Below are positions 17,821-32,547 of a stretch of 64,000 nucleotides of DNA, piece after piece. The DNA comes from an uncultured Lachnospiraceae bacterium. Its GTDB lineage: Bacteria > Bacillota > Clostridia > Lachnospirales > Lachnospiraceae. The notes under the pieces were generated by a model that ran no database searches, was not told where the DNA came from, and saw nothing but the letters and a program-made list of their open reading frames with translations. The stretch covers positions 164 through 64,163 of the forward strand of contig CANPOY010000010.1 of the NCBI GenBank assembly GCA_947575805.1. The letters run 5' to 3'. Position numbers and translations under genes: made by a program. Position 1 is the first letter of the stretch. Every line of letters starts with the position of its first letter.

Positions 17821-20493
17821 TTGATACAAGACATGAAGACAGGTACAGGCACGGATATTCACCAAACAGTAAATGCGGAGGATATGATTATGGATAATAT
17901 AAGGGAGCCTTTAAAACCGTCCGGCGGCAGAACGCCGGAGACCGGGAACCGTGAGCAGCAGAGTGGGATGCAGAGCGTTCAGAATCTGGAGGCCATCATC
18001 AATGAGGGCCTTCGAACCGCCTTGCTGGAGAGGACTCCGGATCAATCCCTGGAGGTACTGCTGAAGCATCTGGGAAATGCGTTGAGCGGGGAGCGGACCT
18101 ATATATTTGAAAAGAACGAGTCCGGCGGTGATGACAATACCTATGAGTGGGTGGCTGACGGGGTGACACCGGAAAAGGAGAACCTTCAGGATGTTCCCCC
18201 GGAGGTATGTGCCGTCTGGTATCGAAAATTTGAAGTCGGCAGATTTATCGTCATTCATAACCTGGAAGAGACGCGGGAGGAAGACCCGCTTATGTATGAG
18301 ACGCTGAAACCCCGGAATATTCATTCCCTTGTGGTGGTTCCTCTTTATGACGACGGAAGGCCCATCGGTTTTTACGGCGTGGACAATCCGCCTGCAAAGT
18401 CACTGGAATACGCCTCAAATATGCTCCAGACCGCGGCATACTTCATTGTCTCTTCTTTGAAAAGGCGTAATCTTGTTCGTGAGCTTCAGAAGCGGAGTGA
18501 TCAGGTTCTTCACGCGCTCAGCGTGGATTATCTTGGTATCTATCAGGTGAACTTCGATACGGGCGAATGTGAGATATACCGGGACAGTGAGCAGCTGAGG
18601 ATGGATTGGGCAGTCAATTGCGAGGATGGTTATGAGACGGCCATGGAAAGGTATATATCCAGGTATGTAGTCCCCGGGGATCAGGAACGGCTTCGGCTGG
18701 TGACAAAAAAAGACTATGTGCTGGATCAGCTCAGGAGAAAGAATAAGTTTTATGTCCGGTATCAGGTGAAAGATAATTCTTATGGGCTGAAACATATGGA
18801 GATTCATTTTTCTGCCAGGGAGGAACTGGTGGAAGGCAACAGTGCGATTTTTGCCCAGCGGGATGTAAATGCCGTGGTGGAGCAGGAAGAGAAGTATAAA
18901 CTGGAAGCAAGGCAGAGCCTGGAGAGCATTCTGGAAGGAGCCAGAACCGGTATCTGGACCATTGAGCTGGAGGAAGGGTGCCGGCCGAGGATGTATGCAG
19001 ACCGAACAATGCGGATACTTTTGGGAGTACCGGATGGGATTGAGCCGGAGGAGTGCTATCAGCGCTGGTATAAAAATATTGAGCCGGGTTATGTGGAAAT
19101 GGTGCAGGAATCGGTGCGGGAGATGATGGAAACCGGGCGTGCCGAAGTGATTTACCCCTGGAATCATCCTGAGCTGGGGAAAATATATGTCCGCTGTGGC
19201 GGCGTGCCGGACAGGAAATTTAACAAAACGGGGGTCTGCCTGAGCGGATACCATCAAGACATCACGGAAACTATGGTAACCCGGAAGAAGCAGGAGCAGG
19301 CCATTTTGGAGCTGCTGGAGAAAGTTAGACAGGCAAACTCGGCAAAGAGTGAATTCCTTTCCCATATGTCCCATGATCTCCGTACACCCATCAACGGGAT
19401 TCTGGGAATGCTGGCCATTATGGAGAGAAGCCAGGAGGATCCTGAGCGGCAGCGGGATTGCCGGGAAAAGATCCGTGTATCCACGGAGCATCTGCTGTCA
19501 CTGGTCAACGACGTCCTTCAGGTCAGCAAGCTGGAAAGCGGAAGACCTTCGGAGATAGAAGAGCCTTTTGAACTTCATGACATATTGGAAAGCTGCATTA
19601 TGATTCTGTCTGCTCAGGCAGAAACGGCAGGGATTCGTCTGGTGCTGGAAGAAGCGGACATACAGCATGTGAGGCTGATTGGAAATCCACTGCACCTGAA
19701 ACAGATCCTGATGGGTATTATCGACAACGGGATCAAATATAACCGGCCCAACGGCTCTGTAGTGATCCGGGTAAAGGAGACCGGCTGCGAGGAAGGGATT
19801 GCAAGTTATCGGTTTGCGATCGAAGATAACGGAATCGGTATCGGGGAGGACTTTAAAAAGCATATTTTTGAACCCTTTACTCAGGAACATCAGGGTGCAA
19901 GGACGCACTATAACGGCGCCGGGCTTGGCATGTCTATTGTGAAGAAGCTGGTAGATCAATTAGAGGGGACCATTGAAGTAGACAGTCAGATTGGCAGGGG
20001 AAGTGTATTTTATGTTACACTGCCCATACATGTAGACCAAGCGTGGAGTGCTGAGCCTTTGGAGGAGGAAGGGGATATACAGGCAGATATAGCCGGGATG
20101 CGCGTCCTTCTGGTGGAGGATAACGAGATCAACTGTGAGATTGTGGAGTTTATGTTGGAGCAGGCGGGCGCTGAGGTGGTGACTGCCAACGACGGAAAGG
20201 CGGCCGTGGATGCTTTCGAAGCCTCTGCACCGGGAAGCTTTGACTGCATACTTATGGATTTGATGATGCCGGTTATGAGTGGGTATGAGGCGGCCCGGGT
20301 GATTCGCGGATTAGACCGGCCGGACGCGGAAGCAGTGCCTATTATAGCGTTATCAGCTAACGCATTTGAGGAGGATGTGGCAATGACAAAGGATGCCGGA
20401 ATGAATGAGCATCTGGCAAAGCCGGTGGACATCAACGAAGTGTTCAGGGCCATGCGCCGGCTGAAAGGGGTGACGGAAGGAGCAGAAGAATGA
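17821..20493 (+). CDS. Hybrid histidine kinase (GAF, PAS-like, HisKA, HATPase, receiver); exact start uncertain
   Basis: GAF (NTYEWVADGV...GFYGVDNP), FLSHMSHDLRTPINGILG, DNGIGI, GAGLGMSIV, VLLVEDN, ILMDLMMP. Confidence 0.92.
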   Translation: MIQDMKTGTGTDIHQTVNAEDMIMDNIREPLKPSGGRTPETGNREQQSGMQSVQNLEAIINEGLRTALLERTPDQSLEVLLKHLGNALSGERTYIFEKNESGGDDNTYEWVADGVTPEKENLQDVPPEVCAVWYRKFEVGRFIVIHNLEETREEDPLMYETLKPRNIHSLVVVPLYDDGRPIGFYGVDNPPAKSLEYASNMLQTAAYFIVSSLKRRNLVRELQKRSDQVLHALSVDYLGIYQVNFDTGECEIYRDSEQLRMDWAVNCEDGYETAMERYISRYVVPGDQERLRLVTKKDYVLDQLRRKNKFYVRYQVKDNSYGLKHMEIHFSAREELVEGNSAIFAQRDVNAVVEQEEKYKLEARQSLESILEGARTGIWTIELEEGCRPRMYADRTMRILLGVPDGIEPEECYQRWYKNIEPGYVEMVQESVREMMETGRAEVIYPWNHPELGKIYVRCGGVPDRKFNKTGVCLSGYHQDITETMVTRKKQEQAILELLEKVRQANSAKSEFLSHMSHDLRTPINGILGMLAIMERSQEDPERQRDCREKIRVSTEHLLSLVNDVLQVSKLESGRPSEIEEPFELHDILESCIMILSAQAETAGIRLVLEEADIQHVRLIGNPLHLKQILMGIIDNGIKYNRPNGSVVIRVKETGCEEGIASYRFAIEDNGIGIGEDFKKHIFEPFTQEHQGARTHYNGAGLGMSIVKKLVDQLEGTIEVDSQIGRGSVFYVTLPIHVDQAWSAEPLEEEGDIQADIAGMRVLLVEDNEINCEIVEFMLEQAGAEVVTANDGKAAVDAFEASAPGSFDCILMDLMMPVMSGYEAARVIRGLDRPDAEAVPIIALSANAFEEDVAMTKDAGMNEHLAKPVDINEVFRAMRRLKGVTEGAEE

Positions 20494-22661: not shown

Positions 22662-22840
22662 TTATTGTTGATGCTCAATAATCCATTGTAAAATTTCCTT
22701 TTCACCAATATCACCGGATGCCAATGCAAGAATGACATCGCTTAACTCCTTTTGGCTGTAGGACAATTCATATCCGTTTAATACAAGAAAAATTAACATA
22801 AATGGAGTTTTAGTACCTGTTCTTTGCTTAAAATAATCAT
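22662..22840 (-). pseudogene. doc: Fic/Doc toxin with the catalytic core deleted
   Basis: ATG 22840 overlaps the antitoxin stop: MIILSKEQVLKLH, then an out-of-frame jump to MLIFLVLNGYELSYSQKEL...; no HxFxDGNKR motif. Confidence 0.8.
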
Positions 22841-23079
22841 GTTGCAAGAACCTCATATGCTTCCGTATTCTGTTTTATTAACCGGTCAGATATTGCAAAG
22901 ATATCTTCATTACTGGCAATTTTTTCCTTTTCCGCTTTACTGAAATCAATGACCAAATATCTGGGTACATTATTTTTCAGAATAACCGCCGTTCCATGTT
23001 CGTCAACTACTTTGGCTACTTTTGAAAAATTTTGATTTGCTTCTGTAATTGAAATCATTGTGTTTGTATCTATTGTCAT
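22837..23079 (-). CDS. Phd/YefM-family antitoxin
   Basis: ISITEANQNFSKVAKVVDEHGTAVILKNNVPRY. Confidence 0.9.
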   Translation of the reverse strand: MTIDTNTMISITEANQNFSKVAKVVDEHGTAVILKNNVPRYLVIDFSKAEKEKIASNEDIFAISDRLIKQNTEAYEVLAT

Positions 23080-24861: not shown

Positions 24862-24935
24862 GTATTCTCTTAAAATTCATGGCTCTCTTTCTAAAGCGTC
24901 TATTCAAAGTTTTCCTGTGACAGTTGATTGGCTCG

Positions 24936-24986
24936 GCATAGCATATACATACCAGTTCAGCCTGAACTGGTATATATATGCTATGC
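24936..24986. repeat. Near-perfect 24-bp inverted repeat with a 3-nt loop
   Basis: GCATAGCATATACATACCAGTTCA-gcc-TGAACTGGTATATATATGCTATGC, one mismatch. Confidence 0.9.
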
Positions 24987-24998
24987 TGTTAAAACCAA

Positions 24999-25027
24999 TT
25001 GACAAAAGGACTGGGGGGGGGTAAAAT
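24999..25027 (+). promoter_or_regulatory. sigmaA promoter with a G9 homopolymer in the spacer
   Basis: TTGACA(24999)-aaaggactGGGGGGGGG-TAAAAT(25022); spacer exactly 17 nt. Confidence 0.75.
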
Positions 25028-25252
25028 GCGATAAGAAGCTGCGGACATTGGCTTTGGAGCAAAAAAAGGATAAACATGTTATTCAGGAGGCATACCGCCA
25101 TGAAATGTTTAAACCATCCCACGATCCGGAACCAACGCAAAATAATAAGCTGAATCAGAAAAAAATTCAGGAATTATGCAACCGGCTGTATTCTCTATTC
25201 GTTCTATGTGTGTAAGGACCAAACCCCGAACAGGACGAAAGGAGAGGAGAAA

Positions 25253-25378
25253 ATGTCGGATGGTTTTATCAGGCAAGTGATTCAGGCGGTTATCGAATCA
25301 TTCCCCATAGATCGGGCGAAAAAAACGGATATGTTACGGAGGATCACGGATCCTAAAAAGAAAAAGGGGGAGCAATAA
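25253..25378 (+). CDS. Unannotated 41-aa small protein
   Basis: RBS aaggagaggag; MSDGFIRQVIQAVIESFPIDRAKKTDMLRRITDPKKKKGEQ*; stops 3 nt before the next ATG. Confidence 0.55.
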   Translation: MSDGFIRQVIQAVIESFPIDRAKKTDMLRRITDPKKKKGEQ

Positions 25379-25381
25379 AAT

Positions 25382-27220
25382 ATGTATTGTACTTCTTGTG
25401 GAAAACAAATCGCGGACGATGCCGCATTTTGTCCGCATTGCGGAATGCCTGTATCATCGAGCGATGAACTGGCAGAGCTGGTGGCCGCGGCGCGCATCGG
25501 CGACCAGGACGCCATTGGCGCTTTGTATGAAAAGACTTACAGTAAGGTCTATTACACTGTCAAGTCCATAATCAAGGATGAGGATACGGTGTTTGACATC
25601 GTACAGGACACTTACATAAAAGCGTTCGCCCATCTGAACAGTTTCCAGGGTGACACGAAGTTTTTACCATGGATACGCCGCATTGCCGCCAATACGGCCA
25701 GGGACTGGCTGAAAAAGAAGCGTCCTATGCTGTTTACGGAGCTGAGCTCCGGCGACGAAAAGGATACTCCCGCAGAAGAGCTGTTTCCGGATGAGCGCAG
25801 CGAGAATCTGCCGGACCAGGTCATCGATCAGGAAGAGACAAAGCGCCTGATCCGCGAGATTATCGAGGAGTTGCCGGAGGATCAGCGTGCTGCTATCGGT
25901 ATGTTCTACTATGAGGAAATGTCAGTTAAAGAGATTGCCGCCGCAATGGGGGTCTCCGAGAGCGCAGTTAAGAGTCGGCTGATGTACGGGCGGAACAAAA
26001 TAGAAACGAAGGTCAGGGAACTGGAGAAGCAGGGCACGAAGCTCTACAGCCTGTCTCCTCTTCCGTTCCTGCTGCTGCTTTTCCGCAATCAGAAGGCATA
26101 TGCGGCCGAGGCACCGGACAGCCGGATTCTTCACGCTATCCTTGCTTCGCAGCCCATGGATGGAGCTGCAGCGGCCGGGGCCGCGCAGGGCGTCGGTACG
26201 GCAGGAGCAGGCACCGGGGCAGGGGCAAGTACCGGGGCGGCGGCTGGCAGCCTTGGTGCGCTGAAAATCGGACTGGTCACTCTTGTCGCCGCGGCAGTTG
26301 TAGGCCTTGGCATTTATGGCGGGATGCGGATCGCTTTCCGCTCTGGCGAGTCACAGAATTCTCAGACTATCGAGGGCGTCATTGACCAGAAAGAGTCGGA
26401 GGCATCTGTAGAGCCTTCTGCAGTAGAATCACAACCAACGGAAGAGGACACAAAGGATTCAACAATGGAGGCTTCCCAATCTACGGAAGAAGAGAGCTCG
26501 GAAGGGGAAGAAGAGAGCCTGGAAGCCGAGGACGAGGCAGTTTGTTCATACATTTTCTCGGATATGCCAATAGCGGCATTTGAGATAACGGGATTGGGAA
26601 TTGGTCCGGATGTGGCCGTTCTCGAGGAACCTATCGTTTTTGAGGATGGTTACAGTGAACTTATACCTCTTGTTCCGATGACGCCAGGCGAAAACACATT
26701 TGTACTGTACTGCTTTTCCGGAGGGAATGAGACTGATCAGGAGTACTATGGAATATCACGGGCCAAAATCCATTCCCCGTCGGGAAGCAGTCCCTGGGAA
26801 GCAAATTCATATACGGTTAATGAGATACCTGCTGAGAATGTCCCGGAGGGCTGGGCAGGTATAAGCAAACATCATGGAGAATTTAAGGAACAAGATGCCG
26901 GAAGTCATGAGACCGTGGGTGATGAATTTGTGATGAGCCTGGATGAGCCGGGTAACGGGGAGTTTAAGAGCATAGTTGACCCCTGGCTTCATTATATAAC
27001 ATTTGCGGAAATCTTCCATAGCGACGCACCCGAGCCCGATGCGATACATGTGGTAGAAGTATTAACATTTACGTACGGAGATGAATACAGCGTGGAAGAG
27101 AACGTGGTTTCAGAAGTGGCGGCAGCCTTTGAAGAGCGGGGAGCGACCGTTCGGGAGATTTCCGTGGAAGAGGCTCTTGCAAGGGATCAAATAACAGTAT
27201 CCGAGGAAAATGCGGACTAA
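25382..27220 (+). CDS. Zinc-ribbon / ECF sigma factor / transmembrane / extracellular-domain fusion protein
   Basis: CxxC-X10-CxxC N-terminus; sigma region 2 (DIVQDTYIKAF...WIRRIAANTARDWLKK); region 4 (LPEDQR...KEIAAAMGVSESAVKSRLMYGR); Ala/Gly linker, TM helix, acidic Ser/Glu/Thr linker, ~220-aa domain. Confidence 0.85.
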   Translation: MYCTSCGKQIADDAAFCPHCGMPVSSSDELAELVAAARIGDQDAIGALYEKTYSKVYYTVKSIIKDEDTVFDIVQDTYIKAFAHLNSFQGDTKFLPWIRRIAANTARDWLKKKRPMLFTELSSGDEKDTPAEELFPDERSENLPDQVIDQEETKRLIREIIEELPEDQRAAIGMFYYEEMSVKEIAAAMGVSESAVKSRLMYGRNKIETKVRELEKQGTKLYSLSPLPFLLLLFRNQKAYAAEAPDSRILHAILASQPMDGAAAAGAAQGVGTAGAGTGAGASTGAAAGSLGALKIGLVTLVAAAVVGLGIYGGMRIAFRSGESQNSQTIEGVIDQKESEASVEPSAVESQPTEEDTKDSTMEASQSTEEESSEGEEESLEAEDEAVCSYIFSDMPIAAFEITGLGIGPDVAVLEEPIVFEDGYSELIPLVPMTPGENTFVLYCFSGGNETDQEYYGISRAKIHSPSGSSPWEANSYTVNEIPAENVPEGWAGISKHHGEFKEQDAGSHETVGDEFVMSLDEPGNGEFKSIVDPWLHYITFAEIFHSDAPEPDAIHVVEVLTFTYGDEYSVEENVVSEVAAAFEERGATVREISVEEALARDQITVSEENAD

Positions 27221-27250: not shown

Positions 27251-28192
27251 ATGAGAAATAAGAAAACGCTTCGATCAGGAATATTGATGGTAACAGTAAT
27301 GCTGTTTTTAAGTGGCTGTGGTAATCAGGCAGAGTCGGCAAGTGCAGAGTCGGCAAGTGCAGAGTCGGTGAAGACAGTACAAGAGGAAAGCATAGTGGAA
27401 AGTATGGAGAGTTCAGAAGTTGAAGACAATTCTGCGCCTGTTGAATCGGAAAAGCCGGATGTGACGGCTGAACCTACGCAGACGTCTGAGCCCGCTGAAA
27501 CTGTAGCGCCTGTTGAGACGGAAGAGCCCGTTGAGAAAGAAAAGCCTGCGGACACGAAGAAGCCCGTTGAGAAAGAAAAGCCTGCGGACACGAAGAAGCC
27601 CGTTGAGAAAGAAAAGCCTGCGGACACGAAGAAGTCCGTTGAGAAAGAAAAGCCTGCTGCTACAGACAAACCTGCAAAGCCCGCAGATAACCAGGCTGCC
27701 GATGCACCTTCCGAGCCGGCACAGCCCTCCGAACCTGTTCAGCCTTCCGAGTCAACACAGCCTTCTGTACCCGCAGAATCGGAAAGCAGTGGTTCAGAAC
27801 AGCCACATGAACATAATTGGGTAGCGCATACCACTCAGCGCTGGGTATCTCAAATCGTGACAGTAGTAGACGAGCCGGAACGATATGAGAAAGTAGGTGT
27901 GGCAGAAATATACTGGTATAATACAGGCACATGGGAGGTGACGAGAGACCCTGATCGTTTCACAGAATGGTGCTATGACGAGGTAGGCGGAGCATCCTGT
28001 CCCATGGCAGGATGGCATGAGGGCAATCCTTTGTTCTTAGGATATGACGAAAGCGGACATGCCCAATTTGCAGGAGATCATGTCCTCTATGATACTTATG
28101 ACTATATTCCGGCAGTTACCCACGAGGAGGATCAGGGATATTACGAAACATATGTGGACTACTACTACTGCGACTGCGGCGCAACCAAATAA
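27251..28192 (+). CDS. Lipoprotein with Pro/Lys/Glu tandem repeats and a Tyr/Trp-rich C-terminal domain
   Basis: RBS ggagg, lipobox LSGC, (EKEKPADTKKPV)n, C-terminal HEHNW...CDCGATK. Confidence 0.8.
   Translation: MRNKKTLRSGILMVTVMLFLSGCGNQAESASAESASAESVKTVQEESIVESMESSEVEDNSAPVESEKPDVTAEPTQTSEPAETVAPVETEEPVEKEKPADTKKPVEKEKPADTKKPVEKEKPADTKKSVEKEKPAATDKPAKPADNQAADAPSEPAQPSEPVQPSESTQPSVPAESESSGSEQPHEHNWVAHTTQRWVSQIVTVVDEPERYEKVGVAEIYWYNTGTWEVTRDPDRFTEWCYDEVGGASCPMAGWHEGNPLFLGYDESGHAQFAGDHVLYDTYDYIPAVTHEEDQGYYETYVDYYYCDCGATK
27330..27368 (+). repeat. 15-bp tandem repeat (AESAS)
   Basis: GCAGAGTCGGCAAGT x2.6. Confidence 0.85.
27527..27657 (+). repeat. 36-bp tandem repeat, about 3.6 copies
   Basis: CCCGTTGAGAAAGAAAAGCCTGCGGACACGAAGAAG identical at 27527, 27563 and 27599; partial copy at 27635. 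Confidence 0.95.
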
Positions 28193-28259: not shown

Positions 28260-29123
28260 ATGAAAGCAAAACCAATTACAACACTTTTACTGGCACTGGC
28301 CCTGGTGCTTCCCCTCTCCGCCTGCGGCGGAAACAGAGATGACGTACATACCCGTATTGAGGGAGACACGCTCTACCTCTCCGGCAGAGGAACCGTAAAT
28401 CACGAAGATTTCGGCGATTTTAGTCCGGATAATGTAGTGGTTGAGAAAGGAATTACCGGGATTGGTGAAGGAGCATTCCATATGTGCGGAAACATGACCG
28501 AAATTAGTCTGCCTGAAGGTGTGAAGAGCATCGGCGATGGTGCGTTCAGTGCGTGCAGCAGTCTGAAAACGGTCACTCTGCCGGAGAGCGTGAAGAGCAT
28601 CGGCGAGGGTGCATTCCGCGAATGCAGCGGTCTGCTTCTTATCAGCCTGCCCGAAAGTGTGGAGAGTATCGGCCAGGCTGCATTCTACAGGTGCAGCAGC
28701 CTGATGTCTATCACCTTGCCGGAGGGCCTGAAGAGCATCGGCGACGCTGCATTCAACGGATGCAGCAGTCTGACAGCCATTACCCTGCCGGAGGGCGTGA
28801 AAAGCATTGGCGAATATGCGTTCCTGGAATGCAGCAGCCTCACCTCTATCACCTTGCCCGAAGGCGTGGAGAGTATTGGCGCTGGTGCGTTCTATGGATG
28901 CAGCAGCCTGAGAAGTATCACTCTGCCTGACAGCGTGGAGAGTATCGGCGCTGAGGCATTCACATTGTGTGAAAGCCTGACAGAGGTGACACTGGGCACC
29001 GGCTTGACGGAATTTCCCAGCTTTGACGGCGCCTATGCGCTTACACGGATCAAAGCCCCCAGCAGCCTGCAGGAATCGGCCATAAAGTCCGGGATAGATC
29101 TGTCCCTGATTGAATGGTATTAA
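28260..29123 (+). CDS. BspA-type leucine-rich-repeat lipoprotein (LRR_5)
   Basis: RBS aaggag, lipobox LSAC, about seven 23-aa repeats LxxIxLPEGVKSIGxxAFxxCSS. Confidence 0.9.
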   Translation: MKAKPITTLLLALALVLPLSACGGNRDDVHTRIEGDTLYLSGRGTVNHEDFGDFSPDNVVVEKGITGIGEGAFHMCGNMTEISLPEGVKSIGDGAFSACSSLKTVTLPESVKSIGEGAFRECSGLLLISLPESVESIGQAAFYRCSSLMSITLPEGLKSIGDAAFNGCSSLTAITLPEGVKSIGEYAFLECSSLTSITLPEGVESIGAGAFYGCSSLRSITLPDSVESIGAEAFTLCESLTEVTLGTGLTEFPSFDGAYALTRIKAPSSLQESAIKSGIDLSLIEWY

Positions 29124-29381: not shown

Positions 29382-29428
29382 AAAAAGTCCTGTAAACGGT
29401 GTAAATATGCTGTTTACAGGACTTTTTT
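29382..29428. terminator. Bidirectional intrinsic terminator
   Basis: AAAAAGTCCTGTAAAC...GTTTACAGGACTTTTT between convergent units. Confidence 0.8.
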
Positions 29429-29458: not shown

Positions 29459-30685
29459 TTATCTGCCTGAAACCTGGAAGCGCTGATAAATCGGTTTTCC
29501 AATGGCGGCAATGATTATGCCTGCGGCCAGATAGATTAGCGGGACTGCCTGCCAGGGAGTCAGATAGTGACCAAATATGGAAACCGTGTATTGTCCGAAA
29601 ACATTCCAGGGTGCAAGGAAGGACCAGGGGAGCCAGTTCCAAATCTGTGCAGCCACTCTGTAATGCGTCGGAGCAGTCACAATTAAAGGCGCAATCAACA
29701 GCCCGACTGAAATTGCCAGTGTGGCAATATTACTTTTCAGCAGCTCTGACAATACCATGACAAATACACTTGTGATAACAGCAGCAGCCATCATGTTTCC
29801 ATATGCGATCAATATCGCCTGGCCGCAGGTGACAGGGCTTGAGCTTGGATTGTAAATGAATTGAAAGGTCGCCTGAAATCCCCCTGTACCATACAGGCAT
29901 ACGGCCGATGTAAATTCTGCGGTAAAAAACAGGATGGTAATGACTATGGCAAAGGTGGTCCCCGCTGCTATTTTAGCCCAGTAGAGCCATGTTTTTCCTA
30001 AGGGAGAGGCTAATATAAGCTGGTCTGTTTTTCGGATATGTTCATCCGAAAAGATCCCCGAAAGGCATATGGCAATTAATATCAGCACAAAGAGTCCGGT
30101 GGTCTGATAGCTTGAAAACAGGGCGCGGTATCCGCCGTGTTCTTCATAGACATAGGGCTTCTTTACCTGTTCCTCCTGTTCTCTCCAAAATTCTGTTTCT
30201 CCCTTTGACAGCTTTATGTCTTCCCGCATGGAAGTAAGCCATGCCTGCCTTTTGGCGTACAGCTCGGCTTCATTTGGCTGCCATGAATACATGGCTTCAA
30301 AGGTCTGCATACCCGATGTTTTACGTATGATTTGAAAGATTTCACTGTATGGACGTGCATATTTCCGGTATTCTTCTGTTGCTTGATAAGGGGTTTCGGT
30401 GGTCTGCGGGATTTTTTGATAGGCAGCTATGGTTTCTTCCAAAAGCGCCTGATCAATTTCCCTGCCGCTCAGCTCCAGAGCATATTTTTTGTCTGTTTGA
30501 TACATATTAAAGTTTGTGTCTATGAATTTCCCGTCTATATAATAGTTTCCAAGGAGTGGGGCAAACACGGAAATGACACAGATCAGAATGCCCAGCATAG
30601 AAGAAATCCACACTATTTTTTTACTCAGTAATTTTTTCCATTCGTACCCGAAGGCGGCTCCAAAATTATTCATGGTTTGTCTCAT
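29459..30685 (-). CDS. ABC transporter permease
   Basis: One N-terminal TM segment, large loop, FSDEHIRKTDQLILASPLGK, C-terminal TM bundle. Confidence 0.85.
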   Translation of the reverse strand: MRQTMNNFGAAFGYEWKKLLSKKIVWISSMLGILICVISVFAPLLGNYYIDGKFIDTNFNMYQTDKKYALELSGREIDQALLEETIAAYQKIPQTTETPYQATEEYRKYARPYSEIFQIIRKTSGMQTFEAMYSWQPNEAELYAKRQAWLTSMREDIKLSKGETEFWREQEEQVKKPYVYEEHGGYRALFSSYQTTGLFVLILIAICLSGIFSDEHIRKTDQLILASPLGKTWLYWAKIAAGTTFAIVITILFFTAEFTSAVCLYGTGGFQATFQFIYNPSSSPVTCGQAILIAYGNMMAAAVITSVFVMVLSELLKSNIATLAISVGLLIAPLIVTAPTHYRVAAQIWNWLPWSFLAPWNVFGQYTVSIFGHYLTPWQAVPLIYLAAGIIIAAIGKPIYQRFQVSGR

Positions 30686-31385
30686 TTTTGACCTCCCCGC
30701 TAATATGCTGTAAGTAAAAATCTTCCAGACTGCCCTTGCTTTCGTTCCACTTATCCTGATAAATAAGCTTTCCGGCCTTCATGATTAAAACGGTATCGGC
30801 AATGTGCTCAATATCCGACACAATATGAGTTGACAGCAGCACAATGCTATCCTTGCCCAAAGTCTCCATCAGATTGCGGAAGCGTACTCTTTCCTTTGGA
30901 TCCAGTCCGGCAGTGGGCTCGTCTACTACAAGAAGCTTTGGCTGCCCAAGTAAGGCCTGCGCGATTCCCAGGCGCTGCTTCATGCCGCCGGAATAGGTTT
31001 TTATTTTCTTTTTGGCGGCATCCTGTAAGGATACCAGCTGTAAAAGCTCCGCTGCTCTTTGCTTTGCCTGCGGCTTAGCAAGCCCCTTTAACGCCGCCAT
31101 GTATAAAAGGAAGTCCTGCCCTGTGAATTCGGGATAGTAGCCAAAATCCTGGGGAAGGTATCCCAAAACAGAGCGATAATTTTCTTCACCCACATCCATA
31201 CCGTCAAAAGATATACTGCCGCTTGTAGGCTTTAAAATGCCGCAGAGCATTCTCATCAGAGTTGTTTTTCCGGCGCCGTTTTCACCAAGCAGTCCGTTAA
31301 CGCCCTTTTGAAGCTTTAAGGAAATACGGTCAACCGCAATATGATTTTTATATTGCTTTGATACTCGGTCTATTACAAGTTCCAT
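30666..31385 (-). CDS. ABC transporter ATP-binding subunit
   Basis: GENGAGKTT, YSGGMKQR, VDEPTAGLDP, STHIVSD; real start is ATG 31385. Confidence 0.93.
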   Translation of the reverse strand: MELVIDRVSKQYKNHIAVDRISLKLQKGVNGLLGENGAGKTTLMRMLCGILKPTSGSISFDGMDVGEENYRSVLGYLPQDFGYYPEFTGQDFLLYMAALKGLAKPQAKQRAAELLQLVSLQDAAKKKIKTYSGGMKQRLGIAQALLGQPKLLVVDEPTAGLDPKERVRFRNLMETLGKDSIVLLSTHIVSDIEHIADTVLIMKAGKLIYQDKWNESKGSLEDFYLQHISGEVKNETNHE

Positions 31386-32089
31386 GCTAGTTCCTCCGTT
31401 CCTTTCATTGTTAGATAGATTTCCCGCGCTGCTCTGCCAATCAAAAAGACAGACAAAATGATCCACCAGTGAATGTAAGTAAATTGATATAAAAAATCGG
31501 CAAGTATATGAAGTCCAAAGTTTGTCATACTTACCAGCGCAGCGGCACACATGCAGCCGTAAAATGCTTCCCTGCCGTGAAAACGGCGGGTGAACCACAG
31601 GCTGATCGTTACAGTCAGCAGATAGGGAACCAGCAGGTAGATTCCTGTCTGGAGTAAAGATAGATTGCCGCTGCGGCATAAGGGAATCAGACAGCATATG
31701 ACAAGCCCGTCAAGCAACCCCAGAATACTCATCTTTGCCAACACAACACTTTTTGAGGAAAATCTTGCGGACATTTCAAGCTCCTGCATTCCATATTTTG
31801 CGGAGCGCGTGCTTTCCGTCACAGCCAGCAGGCCAAGAAAGGGTATCAGCGCGGACAGAATCCATAAGGTATTCGGATTCATGTGGTGGGCGCCCATCAG
31901 CGCAGGCACGAGCAATAGCAGGGACAGCGCCAATACCCGTTTTCGGAGATAGGTAATCTGTGCAAAAACAAACTGCCGCATACTGATCTGAGGCTTGGCG
32001 AGAGTTCTTAAAAACCGGGCTTTTTCCTGCCGGTTGGGTGCAGGAAACTCAAAGGCCTTTTTAAGCTTCTGTTTTAAAGCTCTGTTCAT
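31373..32089 (-). CDS. Membrane protein, putative anti-sigma partner
   Basis: Short soluble N-terminus then 5-6 TM segments; overlaps the ECF sigma stop. Confidence 0.7.
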   Translation of the reverse strand: MNRALKQKLKKAFEFPAPNRQEKARFLRTLAKPQISMRQFVFAQITYLRKRVLALSLLLLVPALMGAHHMNPNTLWILSALIPFLGLLAVTESTRSAKYGMQELEMSARFSSKSVVLAKMSILGLLDGLVICCLIPLCRSGNLSLLQTGIYLLVPYLLTVTISLWFTRRFHGREAFYGCMCAAALVSMTNFGLHILADFLYQFTYIHWWIILSVFLIGRAAREIYLTMKGTEELAWNL

Positions 32090-32547
32090 TCCGTAAATCC
32101 CTCCTTTATCAGTTCTTCCTTTAACTGCTTTGATGCCCTTGCCAGTCTGCGGTAAACGGCAAAACGTGATATTCCCGTAATTTTACAAATGGAAGTAACG
32201 GAAATTTCATGTACATACCGCAGAAACAATAATTCCTGATCCTCTGCCGGAAGCCTTGCCATGGCGGCTCTTAAGGCAAGGCTATTAATGATTTCCTCTG
32301 ATGAATCACAGACCGAATTTTCTGCGGTATCTTCCATGCTGTAAACCGGCTTTTTCCGAAATTCATCCACACACAGATTTTTTGCGGTGGCATATAAGTA
32401 TGGCAGTATTTTTCCGCTGTCCAGCTTCAGGTCCCGTCTGTAAAATCGAAGAAAAGTTTCCTGGGTAATATCCTGAGCTAATTGCCTGTCATAAATTTTG
32501 AAACAGCAATAGTGGAAAATCTTGTCGTATTGTTCTTCGAGATCCAT
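32086..32547 (-). CDS. ECF RNA polymerase sigma factor
   Basis: AQDITQETFLRF, YLYATAKNLCVDEFRK, LPAEDQELLFLRY...ISRFAVYRRL. Confidence 0.9.
   Translation of the reverse strand: MDLEEQYDKIFHYCCFKIYDRQLAQDITQETFLRFYRRDLKLDSGKILPYLYATAKNLCVDEFRKKPVYSMEDTAENSVCDSSEEIINSLALRAAMARLPAEDQELLFLRYVHEISVTSICKITGISRFAVYRRLARASKQLKEELIKEGFTE

Follow-up and report, generated by a model that had tools for sequence, protein, structure and literature searches.

An ECF sigma factor fused to a transmembrane helix and a predicted extracellular domain belongs to a large family of Clostridia

Extracytoplasmic function (ECF) sigma factors form the third of the major routes by which bacteria transduce signals, and nearly every studied example relies on a separate anti-sigma factor. 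How such a sigma factor might be controlled when sensor, membrane anchor and sigma are joined in one chain without a recognisable anti-sigma domain is the question raised by a 612-residue open reading frame (ORF) in a 64,000-nt stretch of DNA from an uncultured Lachnospiraceae bacterium (contig CANPOY010000010.1 of assembly GCA_947575805.1, positions 164–64,163; hereafter the window). Here we report that this ORF encodes an ECF sigma factor continued by a transmembrane (TM) helix and a folded C-terminal domain, and that it is one member of a large family, as yet uncharacterised, which abounds in gut Lachnospiraceae and Oscillospiraceae, hosts that are genetically little studied. A genome often carries several members, and their outside domains are exchangeable. 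The reading that we favour is a membrane-held, autoregulated sigma factor that would be released by regulated intramembrane proteolysis, and we give it about an even chance of being right.

The protein starts with a zinc ribbon, continues with sigma regions 2 and 4, and then passes through a hydrophobic motif and a Gly/Ala linker to a single TM helix; behind the helix, an acidic spacer leads to an ectodomain of 220 residues (Table 1). Each of these elements had been listed in the initial annotation from the letters of the sequence, and each was recovered in its place by profile searches, hydropathy analysis and structure prediction; the Pfam profiles Sigma70_r2, Sigma70_r4_2 and Zn_Ribbon_1 all matched. 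The Zn_Ribbon_1 profile scores 35.8 bits at residues 2–24, against a gathering threshold of 25. Its four cysteines, Cys3, Cys6, Cys17 and Cys20, are invariant in an alignment of 59 sequences (alignment A1) and are predicted to bind zinc. In the AlphaFold model of residues 1–330, the ribbon has a predicted local distance difference test (pLDDT) score of about 80.

In the sigma portion, Sigma70_r2 matches residues 48–114 with 41 bits, and region 2 is modeled with pLDDT values of 88–97. Nine residues of this region (Asp72, Gln75, Asp76, Tyr78, Lys80, Phe82, Trp97, Asn104 and Arg107) are invariant in alignment A1; we take them to be the core-binding and –10 contacts of ECF sigma factors. The general model TIGR02937 (sigma70-ECF) matches with 107.6 bits, well above its cutoff of 42.9, and every narrower NCBIfam model stays below its own cutoff. 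Residues 26–214 align end to end with Escherichia coli sigmaE (E 1e-21), and the predicted fold is that of sigmaE, SigW and AlgU (Foldseek probability 1.00). Superposition of region 2 alone onto sigmaE region 2 structures gives deviations of 1.4–1.8 Å. No Pfam match to region 1 or region 3 was found in the 612-residue protein, which thus possesses regions 2 and 4 only, as expected of an ECF (group 4) sigma factor. Given the full-length sigmaE alignment, the sigmaE fold and the invariant residues of region 2, the N-terminal part is, as judged from sequence and predicted structure, a genuine ECF sigma factor.

The hydropathy profile of the putative TM helix reaches a Kyte–Doolittle maximum of 2.23 over 19 residues, and the helix is preceded by a conserved GLGALK stretch in which Lys295 is invariant. 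The domain following the acidic spacer is modeled with confidence (pLDDT 88.8; predicted template modelling score, pTM, 0.87). Comparison of this model with the folds in the PDB yielded no significant match (best E 0.02, TM-score 0.13), and neither a PDB sequence match nor a Pfam match was found for the domain. Its relatives are mostly proteins of 270–310 residues, composed of a lipoprotein signal peptide with a lipobox (for example, MLKKVLVAGLMLTVMLSASAC followed by GK), an acidic spacer and the domain itself at 40%–65% identity. As the ectodomain is homologous to these lipobox-bearing lipoproteins, it should reside outside the cell, and the TM helix thus very probably spans the membrane with the C-terminus outside, in line with the initial annotation. 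The folded 290-residue N-terminal part and the lipoprotein-like ectodomain together support a single-pass, N-in/C-out topology of the fusion.

The ectodomains of 67 fusions fall into 11 clusters, one of which accounts for 40 proteins, so that the pattern anticipated for a sensor family, a conserved sigma part combined with variable extracellular domains, is indeed seen. The ectodomain type of the window occurs only in the window and in two Acetatifactor relatives (loci L009 and L011) among these 67 fusions. The window protein has the appearance of a domain swap, the usual ectodomain of the family having been replaced by one of the lipoprotein type. We also considered whether the sensor domain copies its own target; comparison of the ectodomains with the products of adjacent genes gave similarity at one locus only (L074), which does not support the idea in general. 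The gene contexts of the stand-alone lipoprotein homologues provided no mechanistic lead. At three loci (L091, L092 and L093, the loci of P0136 and P0127), lipoproteins with the window-type ectodomain are encoded directly upstream of the Tn7-like transposition genes TnsB, TniB and TniQ, a PemK toxin and a resolvase, and at L089 and L090 an ectodomain homologue ends a cluster of a canonical ECF sigma factor, a 342-residue protein and an ABC transporter.

Searching a collection of 5.8 billion proteins retrieved 870 relatives of the fusion protein. Among the top 120, the CxxC-X10-CxxC pattern is kept in 113 and a single TM helix at about residues 290–330 in 119, a degree of conservation that chance cannot account for. 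A scan of species-representative prokaryotic genomes revealed 149 relatives in Lachnospiraceae, Oscillospiraceae, Ruminococcaceae, Eubacteriaceae and other families; the closest are from mouse-gut Acetatifactor metagenome-assembled genomes (MAGs), and several genomes carry two to three copies. An identical ORF is present on several independent mouse-gut contigs, and contigs from other sequencing runs show substitutions only within the ORF. Given the independent identical contigs, the substitution-only variants and hundreds of like proteins across families of Clostridia, an artefact, be it an assembly join, the read-through of two genes or a strain-specific deletion, has next to no probability. 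No support for it was found, and sensor and sigma form one polypeptide, as first proposed. Neither of the doubts that the initial annotation had raised against itself, an artefactual fusion or a helix that does not span the membrane, is thus borne out.

Degenerate copies do occur elsewhere. At L081 (4986–6900) region 4 of the sigma factor is frameshifted, with the usual ectodomain encoded further on in another frame; at L035 (4998–5753) a stop codon stands right behind the segment after region 4, and linker, TM helix and ectodomain are gone. In P0158 (342 residues), region 2 and the following linker are joined straight to an acidic spacer and a window-type ectodomain, without region 4, hydrophobic motif or TM helix; it may have arisen by deletion, or its 3.4-kb contig may be a chimeric assembly. 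At the other extreme, L040 (3193–7154) harbors two fusion genes in tandem, the first of which is devoid of the zinc ribbon, and the Oscillospiraceae MAG HAN082 has at least three fusion copies on different contigs (L082, L085 and L088).

Gene models of 80 loci share one layout: an optional zinc ribbon, regions 2 and 4, the stretch LEKxGTKLYxLxPxPFLLLLF with about 25 further residues, a linker, GLGALK, the TM helix, an acidic spacer and an ectodomain. The zinc ribbon is absent in about a fifth of the relatives, which agrees with its description as an extra module. The most conserved contiguous stretch of the family is the segment directly after region 4, which harbors the hydrophobic motif LYSLSPLPFLLLLF at residues 221–234 and the invariant residues Gly218, Thr219, Lys220, Leu221, Tyr222, Pro226, Phe229 and Leu254 (alignment A1). 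When residues 210–262 were compared with 1.84 billion representative sequences, 155 clusters were found, in all of which the segment directly follows sigma region 4. No stand-alone form was detected among these representatives, the apparent N-terminal cases being truncated gene calls. An origin of the segment from a separate anti-sigma factor was considered and set aside, since the segment is joined to region 4 in every one of the 155 clusters and thus shows no sign of it. Residues 216–330, like the ectodomain, gave no Pfam match even at E values up to 1, and AlphaFold models residues 222–297 with low confidence (motif pLDDT <50).

The remaining membrane-proximal parts are conserved in different ways. 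The Gly/Ala/Thr-rich linker has a composition common to all relatives at lengths from 15 to about 180 residues. The Gly/Ala-rich TM helix follows a sequence pattern conserved across the family, IGLIALAAVAVVGLGAFG, and is more conserved than a plain anchor requires.

No canonical anti-sigma gene adjoins the fusion, as the initial annotation stated, but a conserved ORF of 41 codons, ending 3 nt upstream of the sigma gene, had been overlooked. Six-frame analysis of the family loci identified 33 distinct homologues that align without gaps around hIRRhIxAVIESFPIDxxKKxxhL. The differences at the three codon positions amount to 0.40, 0.30 and 0.55, with the third position the highest, a coding signature. 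The micro-ORF, 35–45 codons in size, is present at about 36 of 81 loci, with no correlation to the presence of the zinc ribbon, and a second sequence type is found in a distant subfamily. It is annotated as a gene on related contigs. In the collection of 5.8 billion proteins, only two clusters represent it, indicating that gene callers mostly miss it; it has no Pfam match. The micro-ORF is probably translationally coupled to the sigma gene, and its product is a candidate partner or regulator of the sigma factor.

These two conserved elements suggest that control might be exerted mainly by protein–protein inhibition without proteolysis. The micro-protein would serve as a minimal anti-sigma factor or obligate co-factor, and/or the segment after region 4 would fold back on the sigma domains, with the membrane part relaying the signal. 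The micro-protein is comparable to NepR in its size and its two-helix shape, its gene is seen in loci that have the zinc ribbon as well as in loci that lack it, and its conservation at the protein level and the 3-nt spacing suggest the translational coupling typical of sigma/anti-sigma pairs; the segment after region 4, for its part, is the most conserved stretch and never occurs apart from region 4. However, many loci with an intact fusion (L005, for example) lack the micro-ORF or retain only about 10 codons of it, AlphaFold predicts no confident contact for the motif, and the micro-ORF could be a mere coupling or leader ORF. We consider control mainly by such inhibition quite unlikely.

Upstream of the operon, an ECF-type promoter is shared by much of the family. 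In 54 of the 80 loci, the 350 nt upstream of the fusion contain the looser pattern AACC-N16-CGTY, in most cases some 200 nt from the start codon, against 1.4 loci expected from a background of 0.017 per 350 nt. About 20 loci (21 matches) carry a further copy, placed just past the sigma stop codon and before the next gene. In the window, the pattern has a single match in 64 kb, both strands included. A distant subfamily has AAAACC...CGTC in place of the usual hexamers; the promoter therefore co-varies with the sigma subfamily. From this conservation we infer that the fusion sigma recognises the promoter at 25180–25203, in which case it would drive its own operon together with the neighbouring lipoprotein genes. 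Transcription from this promoter would be expected to start at about 25210–25214; contigs from runs labelled as possible RNA have flat depth and reveal no start site. Both the promoter and the lipoprotein genes had been passed over in the initial annotation, which was incomplete in this respect.

The first of these lipoprotein genes, immediately downstream of the fusion, is probably co-transcribed with the sigma gene and is a probable target of the sigma factor; members of the same lipoprotein family stand behind sigma fusions in nine loci. The gene after it encodes a BspA-type leucine-rich-repeat (LRR) lipoprotein. Its LRR_5 repeat serves as the ectodomain itself in some family members (P0016 and P0069), and BspA-type LRR surface lipoproteins among the likely targets may mediate adhesion. 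In other loci, the downstream genes code mostly for exported proteins or lipoproteins. Further upstream, a sigma-70-like promoter candidate (24999–25027) may provide basal transcription of the operon. An inverted repeat at 24918–25004, between a GNAT acetyltransferase gene and the sigma operon, has arms of 43 nt that are 79% complementary and 1 nt apart, and its right arm holds the –35 hexamer of this candidate; the repeat could be a terminator or an operator.

The co-varying promoter also bears on the possibility that the sigma-like part is a membrane-bound decoy which, much as the sigma-mimicking domain of PhyR does, titrates a partner belonging to a different sigma factor. The small two-helix protein encoded beside the sigma-like domain is loosely reminiscent of NepR/PhyR, and the gene for a canonical ECF sigma factor is found at a distance of 5 kb. 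A decoy is nevertheless very improbable: regions 2 and 4 are strongly conserved with several invariant residues, the alignment with sigmaE covers the full length of the sigma part, the promoter co-varies with the sigma subfamily, and there is no receiver domain.

Taken together, these observations enable us to propose a putative model in which regulated intramembrane proteolysis sets free a sigma factor that is otherwise kept at the membrane. At rest, membrane attachment would leave the full-length protein with little or no activity, with the segment after region 4 and/or the micro-protein possibly assisting this inhibition. A signal at the ectodomain would lead to removal or rearrangement of the ectodomain. 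Afterwards, a site-2 protease of the RasP/RseP type would cut inside the Gly/Ala-rich TM helix, freeing the sigma factor into the cytoplasm, where it would drive its own operon, in a positive feedback, and the neighbouring lipoprotein genes. Site-2 proteases favour helices with helix-destabilising residues, and the conserved Gly/Ala-rich TM helix fits such a substrate. The model is reminiscent of IutY, which is cut by Prc and RseP, and of ECF48, ECF52 and ECF53, which are predicted to act likewise (PMC8999054; PMC5826349), as well as of RsgI of Firmicutes, which undergoes RasP cleavage once its ectodomain is lost (PMC10556640).

Several points weigh against this proposal. Pfam searches detected no ZAS, RsgI_N or FecR domain, and there was no sign of a site-1 protease gene or an autoproteolytic SEA-like domain. 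In the AlphaFold model, the segment after region 4 is not docked on the sigma domains (pLDDT <50), which leaves autoinhibition unsupported, and the micro-ORF is missing at about half of the loci and is thus not an obligatory part. Moreover, the pairing of sigma factor and promoter is suggested by conservation and co-variation, and the cleavage step is modeled by analogy on IutY, ECF52 and RsgI. Finally, the long flexible linker equally fits a leash for tethered activity.

Such a leash would permit the sigma factor to be active while anchored, in a manner like that of ToxR or CadC. The linker would allow the RNA polymerase holoenzyme to assemble at the membrane, and the ectodomain would switch activity via conformation or oligomerisation across the TM helix; we regard this as a minority possibility to be taken seriously. 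The targets would then be the fusion operon itself and adjoining genes whose products are exported, genes that co-translational insertion would already keep near the membrane. The flexible low-complexity linker is universal in the family, its composition being kept and its length not, and the small-xxx-small pattern of the TM helix (GLGxFG) could mediate helix–helix contact. The detectable regulon is strictly local, with promoter copies flanking the sigma gene and a single copy in the 64 kb of the window; the target genes code for exported lipoproteins, and an anti-sigma domain and a site-1 protease signature were both not found. On the other hand, among the described fused sigma factors, proteolytic release is established for IutY and proposed for ECF52, and a strictly local regulon is equally compatible with a released sigma factor. 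No sigma factor is known to work while membrane-tethered, which also counts against tethered activity. A naturally tethered sigma factor that transcribes its own operon and the lipoprotein genes in cis, with the 41-residue ESFPID micro-protein as a new kind of sigma regulator, seems unlikely to us. In a variant of this idea, an AAA+ protease would, after intramembrane cleavage, degrade the tail and stall at the slippery Gly/Ala tract, leaving a trimmed active sigma factor.

The favoured release by proteolysis and activity in the tethered state are directly testable against each other, given the predicted promoter, the likely target genes, the 41-residue candidate partner and the invariant segment. 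The family could thereby reveal whether a sigma factor can act tethered, and it could yield compact one-protein sensors for engineering gut Firmicutes.

The coordinates of the fusion, its modules and the surrounding features are collected in Table 1. The first lipoprotein gene contains tandem repeats with 15-nt and 36-nt units at 27329–27368 and 27521–27657; the 36-nt unit encodes PVEKEKPADTKK and is present in 3.8 copies. In other samples, a 15-nt deletion and a 36-nt skip are seen in these repeats, and many public contigs end inside this gene, indicating that the repeats are polymorphic in copy number and break assemblies. The terminator-like hairpin behind the operon was read directly, its loop being longer than the 8 nt within the reach of the automated scan. 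Convergent to the fusion operon, a canonical ECF system occupies 29459–32547 on the minus strand. The genome hence holds both the classical and the fused arrangement. The ordinary ECF sigma factor of the canonical system is the only match found in a search of the window for paralogues of the fusion, and a weak one. A likely type II toxin–antitoxin pair is encoded at 22662–23079 on the minus strand, where an 80-codon ORF overlaps a 64-codon ORF; the former scores 21.9 bits against Phd/YefM, below the Pfam cutoff of 29.8, and the latter has no Pfam match. At 17821–20493, 5 kb upstream of the sigma operon, lies a gene for a large hybrid histidine kinase (GAF, HisKA, HATPase_c and receiver domains), for which no link to the fusion was seen.

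Table 1. Features of the fusion locus and its surroundings, in window coordinates
Feature	Position	Strand	Basis and remarks
Housekeeping-type (sigma-70-like) promoter candidate, TTGACA-17-TAAAAT	24999..25027	+	Consensus scan, 11/12 matches; pattern match only
ECF-type promoter, AACC-N15-TCGTT	25180..25203	+	Extended family consensus TGCAACC-N15-TCGTTtcATAGGTGTAAAc
Micro-ORF, 41 aa, MSDGFIRQVIQAVIESFPIDRAKKTDMLRRITDPKKKKGEQ	25253..25378	+	Own strong Shine-Dalgarno sequence; stop codon 3 nt before the sigma ATG
Fusion ORF	25382..27220	+	ATG start, 612 aa, stop codon within the coordinates
N-terminal zinc ribbon, residues 2–24	25385..25453	+	CxxC-X10-CxxC; Pfam Zn_Ribbon_1 (PF13240)
Sigma region 2, residues 28–116	25463..25729	+	Pfam, NCBIfam, AlphaFold, sigmaE alignment
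Acidic disordered linker between regions 2 and 4, residues 117–149	25730..25828	+	pLDDT <50 at 118–148; aligns with the sigmaE linker
Sigma region 4, residues 150–216	25829..26029	+	Sigma70_r4_2 at 155–206, 58.8 bits; pLDDT 81–91
Motif adjoining sigma region 4, residues 217–257, GTKLYSLSPLPFLLLLFRNQKAYAAEAPDSRILHAILASQ	26030..26152	+	Conservation profile; candidate built-in inhibitory or docking segment
Gly/Ala/Thr-rich low-complexity linker, residues 258–292	26153..26257	+	G+A 73% over 263–292
Single TM helix, residues 294–314	26261..26323	+	Hydropathy; AlphaFold helix 293–320
Acidic Ser/Glu-rich spacer, residues 316–388	26327..26545	+	Outside the membrane; net charge –19 over 316–385
Folded ectodomain, residues 389–607	26546..27202	+	Beta-rich part, then small alpha/beta part
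Lipoprotein gene (MRNKKTLRSGILMVTVMLFLSGC...)	27251..28192	+	Lipobox LSGC; starts 30 nt past the sigma stop codon
BspA-type LRR lipoprotein gene (MKAKPITTLLLALALVLPLSAC...)	28260..29123	+	Pfam LRR_5, E 1.5e-65; lipobox; last gene of the putative operon
Terminator-like hairpin, GTCCTGTAAAC-N14-GTTTACAGGAC, then TTTTTT	29387..29428	.	Direct reading; between the operon and the convergent ABC transporter genes
ABC ATPase and ABC-2 permease	29459..30685	-	
238-aa multi-TM protein, likely anti-sigma	31373..32089	-	Overlaps the ECF sigma gene; no Pfam match
153-aa ECF sigma factor	32086..32547	-	About 5 kb from the fusion

Sigma factors fused to transmembrane regulatory extensions have been described before, namely IutY (ECF243) and ECF48, ECF52 and ECF53 (PMC8999054), so the rarity of such fusions implied by the initial annotation was overstated. 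IutY of Pseudomonas putida resembles the present family in combining an N-terminal ECF sigma factor, a TM segment and an extracytoplasmic part in one chain; it is activated by Prc and then RseP proteolysis, and its truncation leads to constitutive activity (PMC8999054). It differs in pairing a FecI-type sigma factor with a FecR-type anti-sigma factor for cell-surface signalling in iron starvation, with a TonB-dependent receptor and a Gram-negative envelope. The Clostridia family, in contrast, has no FecR-like Pfam match, a Gram-positive host, an N-terminal zinc ribbon and the micro-ORF.

ECF52, ECF48 and ECF53 of Actinobacteria (SCO4117 of Streptomyces coelicolor, for example) likewise possess a long C-terminal extension with one or more TM helices and an extracellular sensor-like domain, lack a separate anti-sigma gene and are proposed to be controlled by proteolysis. 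The fusion shares with them a TM helix (residues 294–314) and an extracytoplasmic domain in one chain. However, their extension starts after region 4 with a zinc-finger anti-sigma (ZAS) domain, behind which come a Pro-rich region and a carbohydrate-binding domain, whereas residues 217–293 of the fusion contain no cysteine and no zf-HC2 match, and hence no HxxxCxxC signature of ZAS. In the Clostridia family, the zinc module is an N-terminal ribbon, the linker is Gly/Ala-rich and the ectodomain is without a known fold.

The SigI/RsgI systems of Bacilli and Clostridia, from the same phylum, follow the same plan, in which one TM helix links a conserved cytoplasmic module to a disordered region and exchangeable extracellular sensors, with several paralogues per genome and RasP-dependent proteolysis of RsgI (PMC10556640). 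Yet sigma and sensor are two proteins there, and RsgI has an N-terminal anti-sigma domain and a membrane-adjacent autoproteolytic SEA-like domain. For these RsgI features, the fusion gave no Pfam match, and its ectodomain model has no PDB match at E <0.001. The Clostridia fusion, by comparison, is one protein with canonical regions 2 and 4 of the sigmaE/SigW type. ToxR and CadC are N-terminal cytoplasmic winged-helix activators that recruit RNA polymerase and have a flexible linker, one TM helix, an outside sensor and nearby targets. Their likeness to the fusion concerns a possible working principle only, for the fusion is itself an RNA polymerase subunit.

Several Firmicutes ECF groups are listed with uncharacterised extensions, among them the Clostridia group ECF262 (Ruminococcus albus), whose regulatory extension is of unknown type (PMC8999054, Table 2); the present family might be one of these groups. 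The main texts of the 2021 ECF reclassification give neither an N-terminal zinc ribbon nor a single-TM extension for any Firmicutes group, and a full-text literature search retrieved no paper on the fusion architecture. The category of membrane-fused sigma factors is thus established and not new, yet the family departs from the defining features of each known fusion type. Compared with the known fusions, its new features are the N-terminal zinc ribbon, the invariant segment after region 4 and the micro-ORF.

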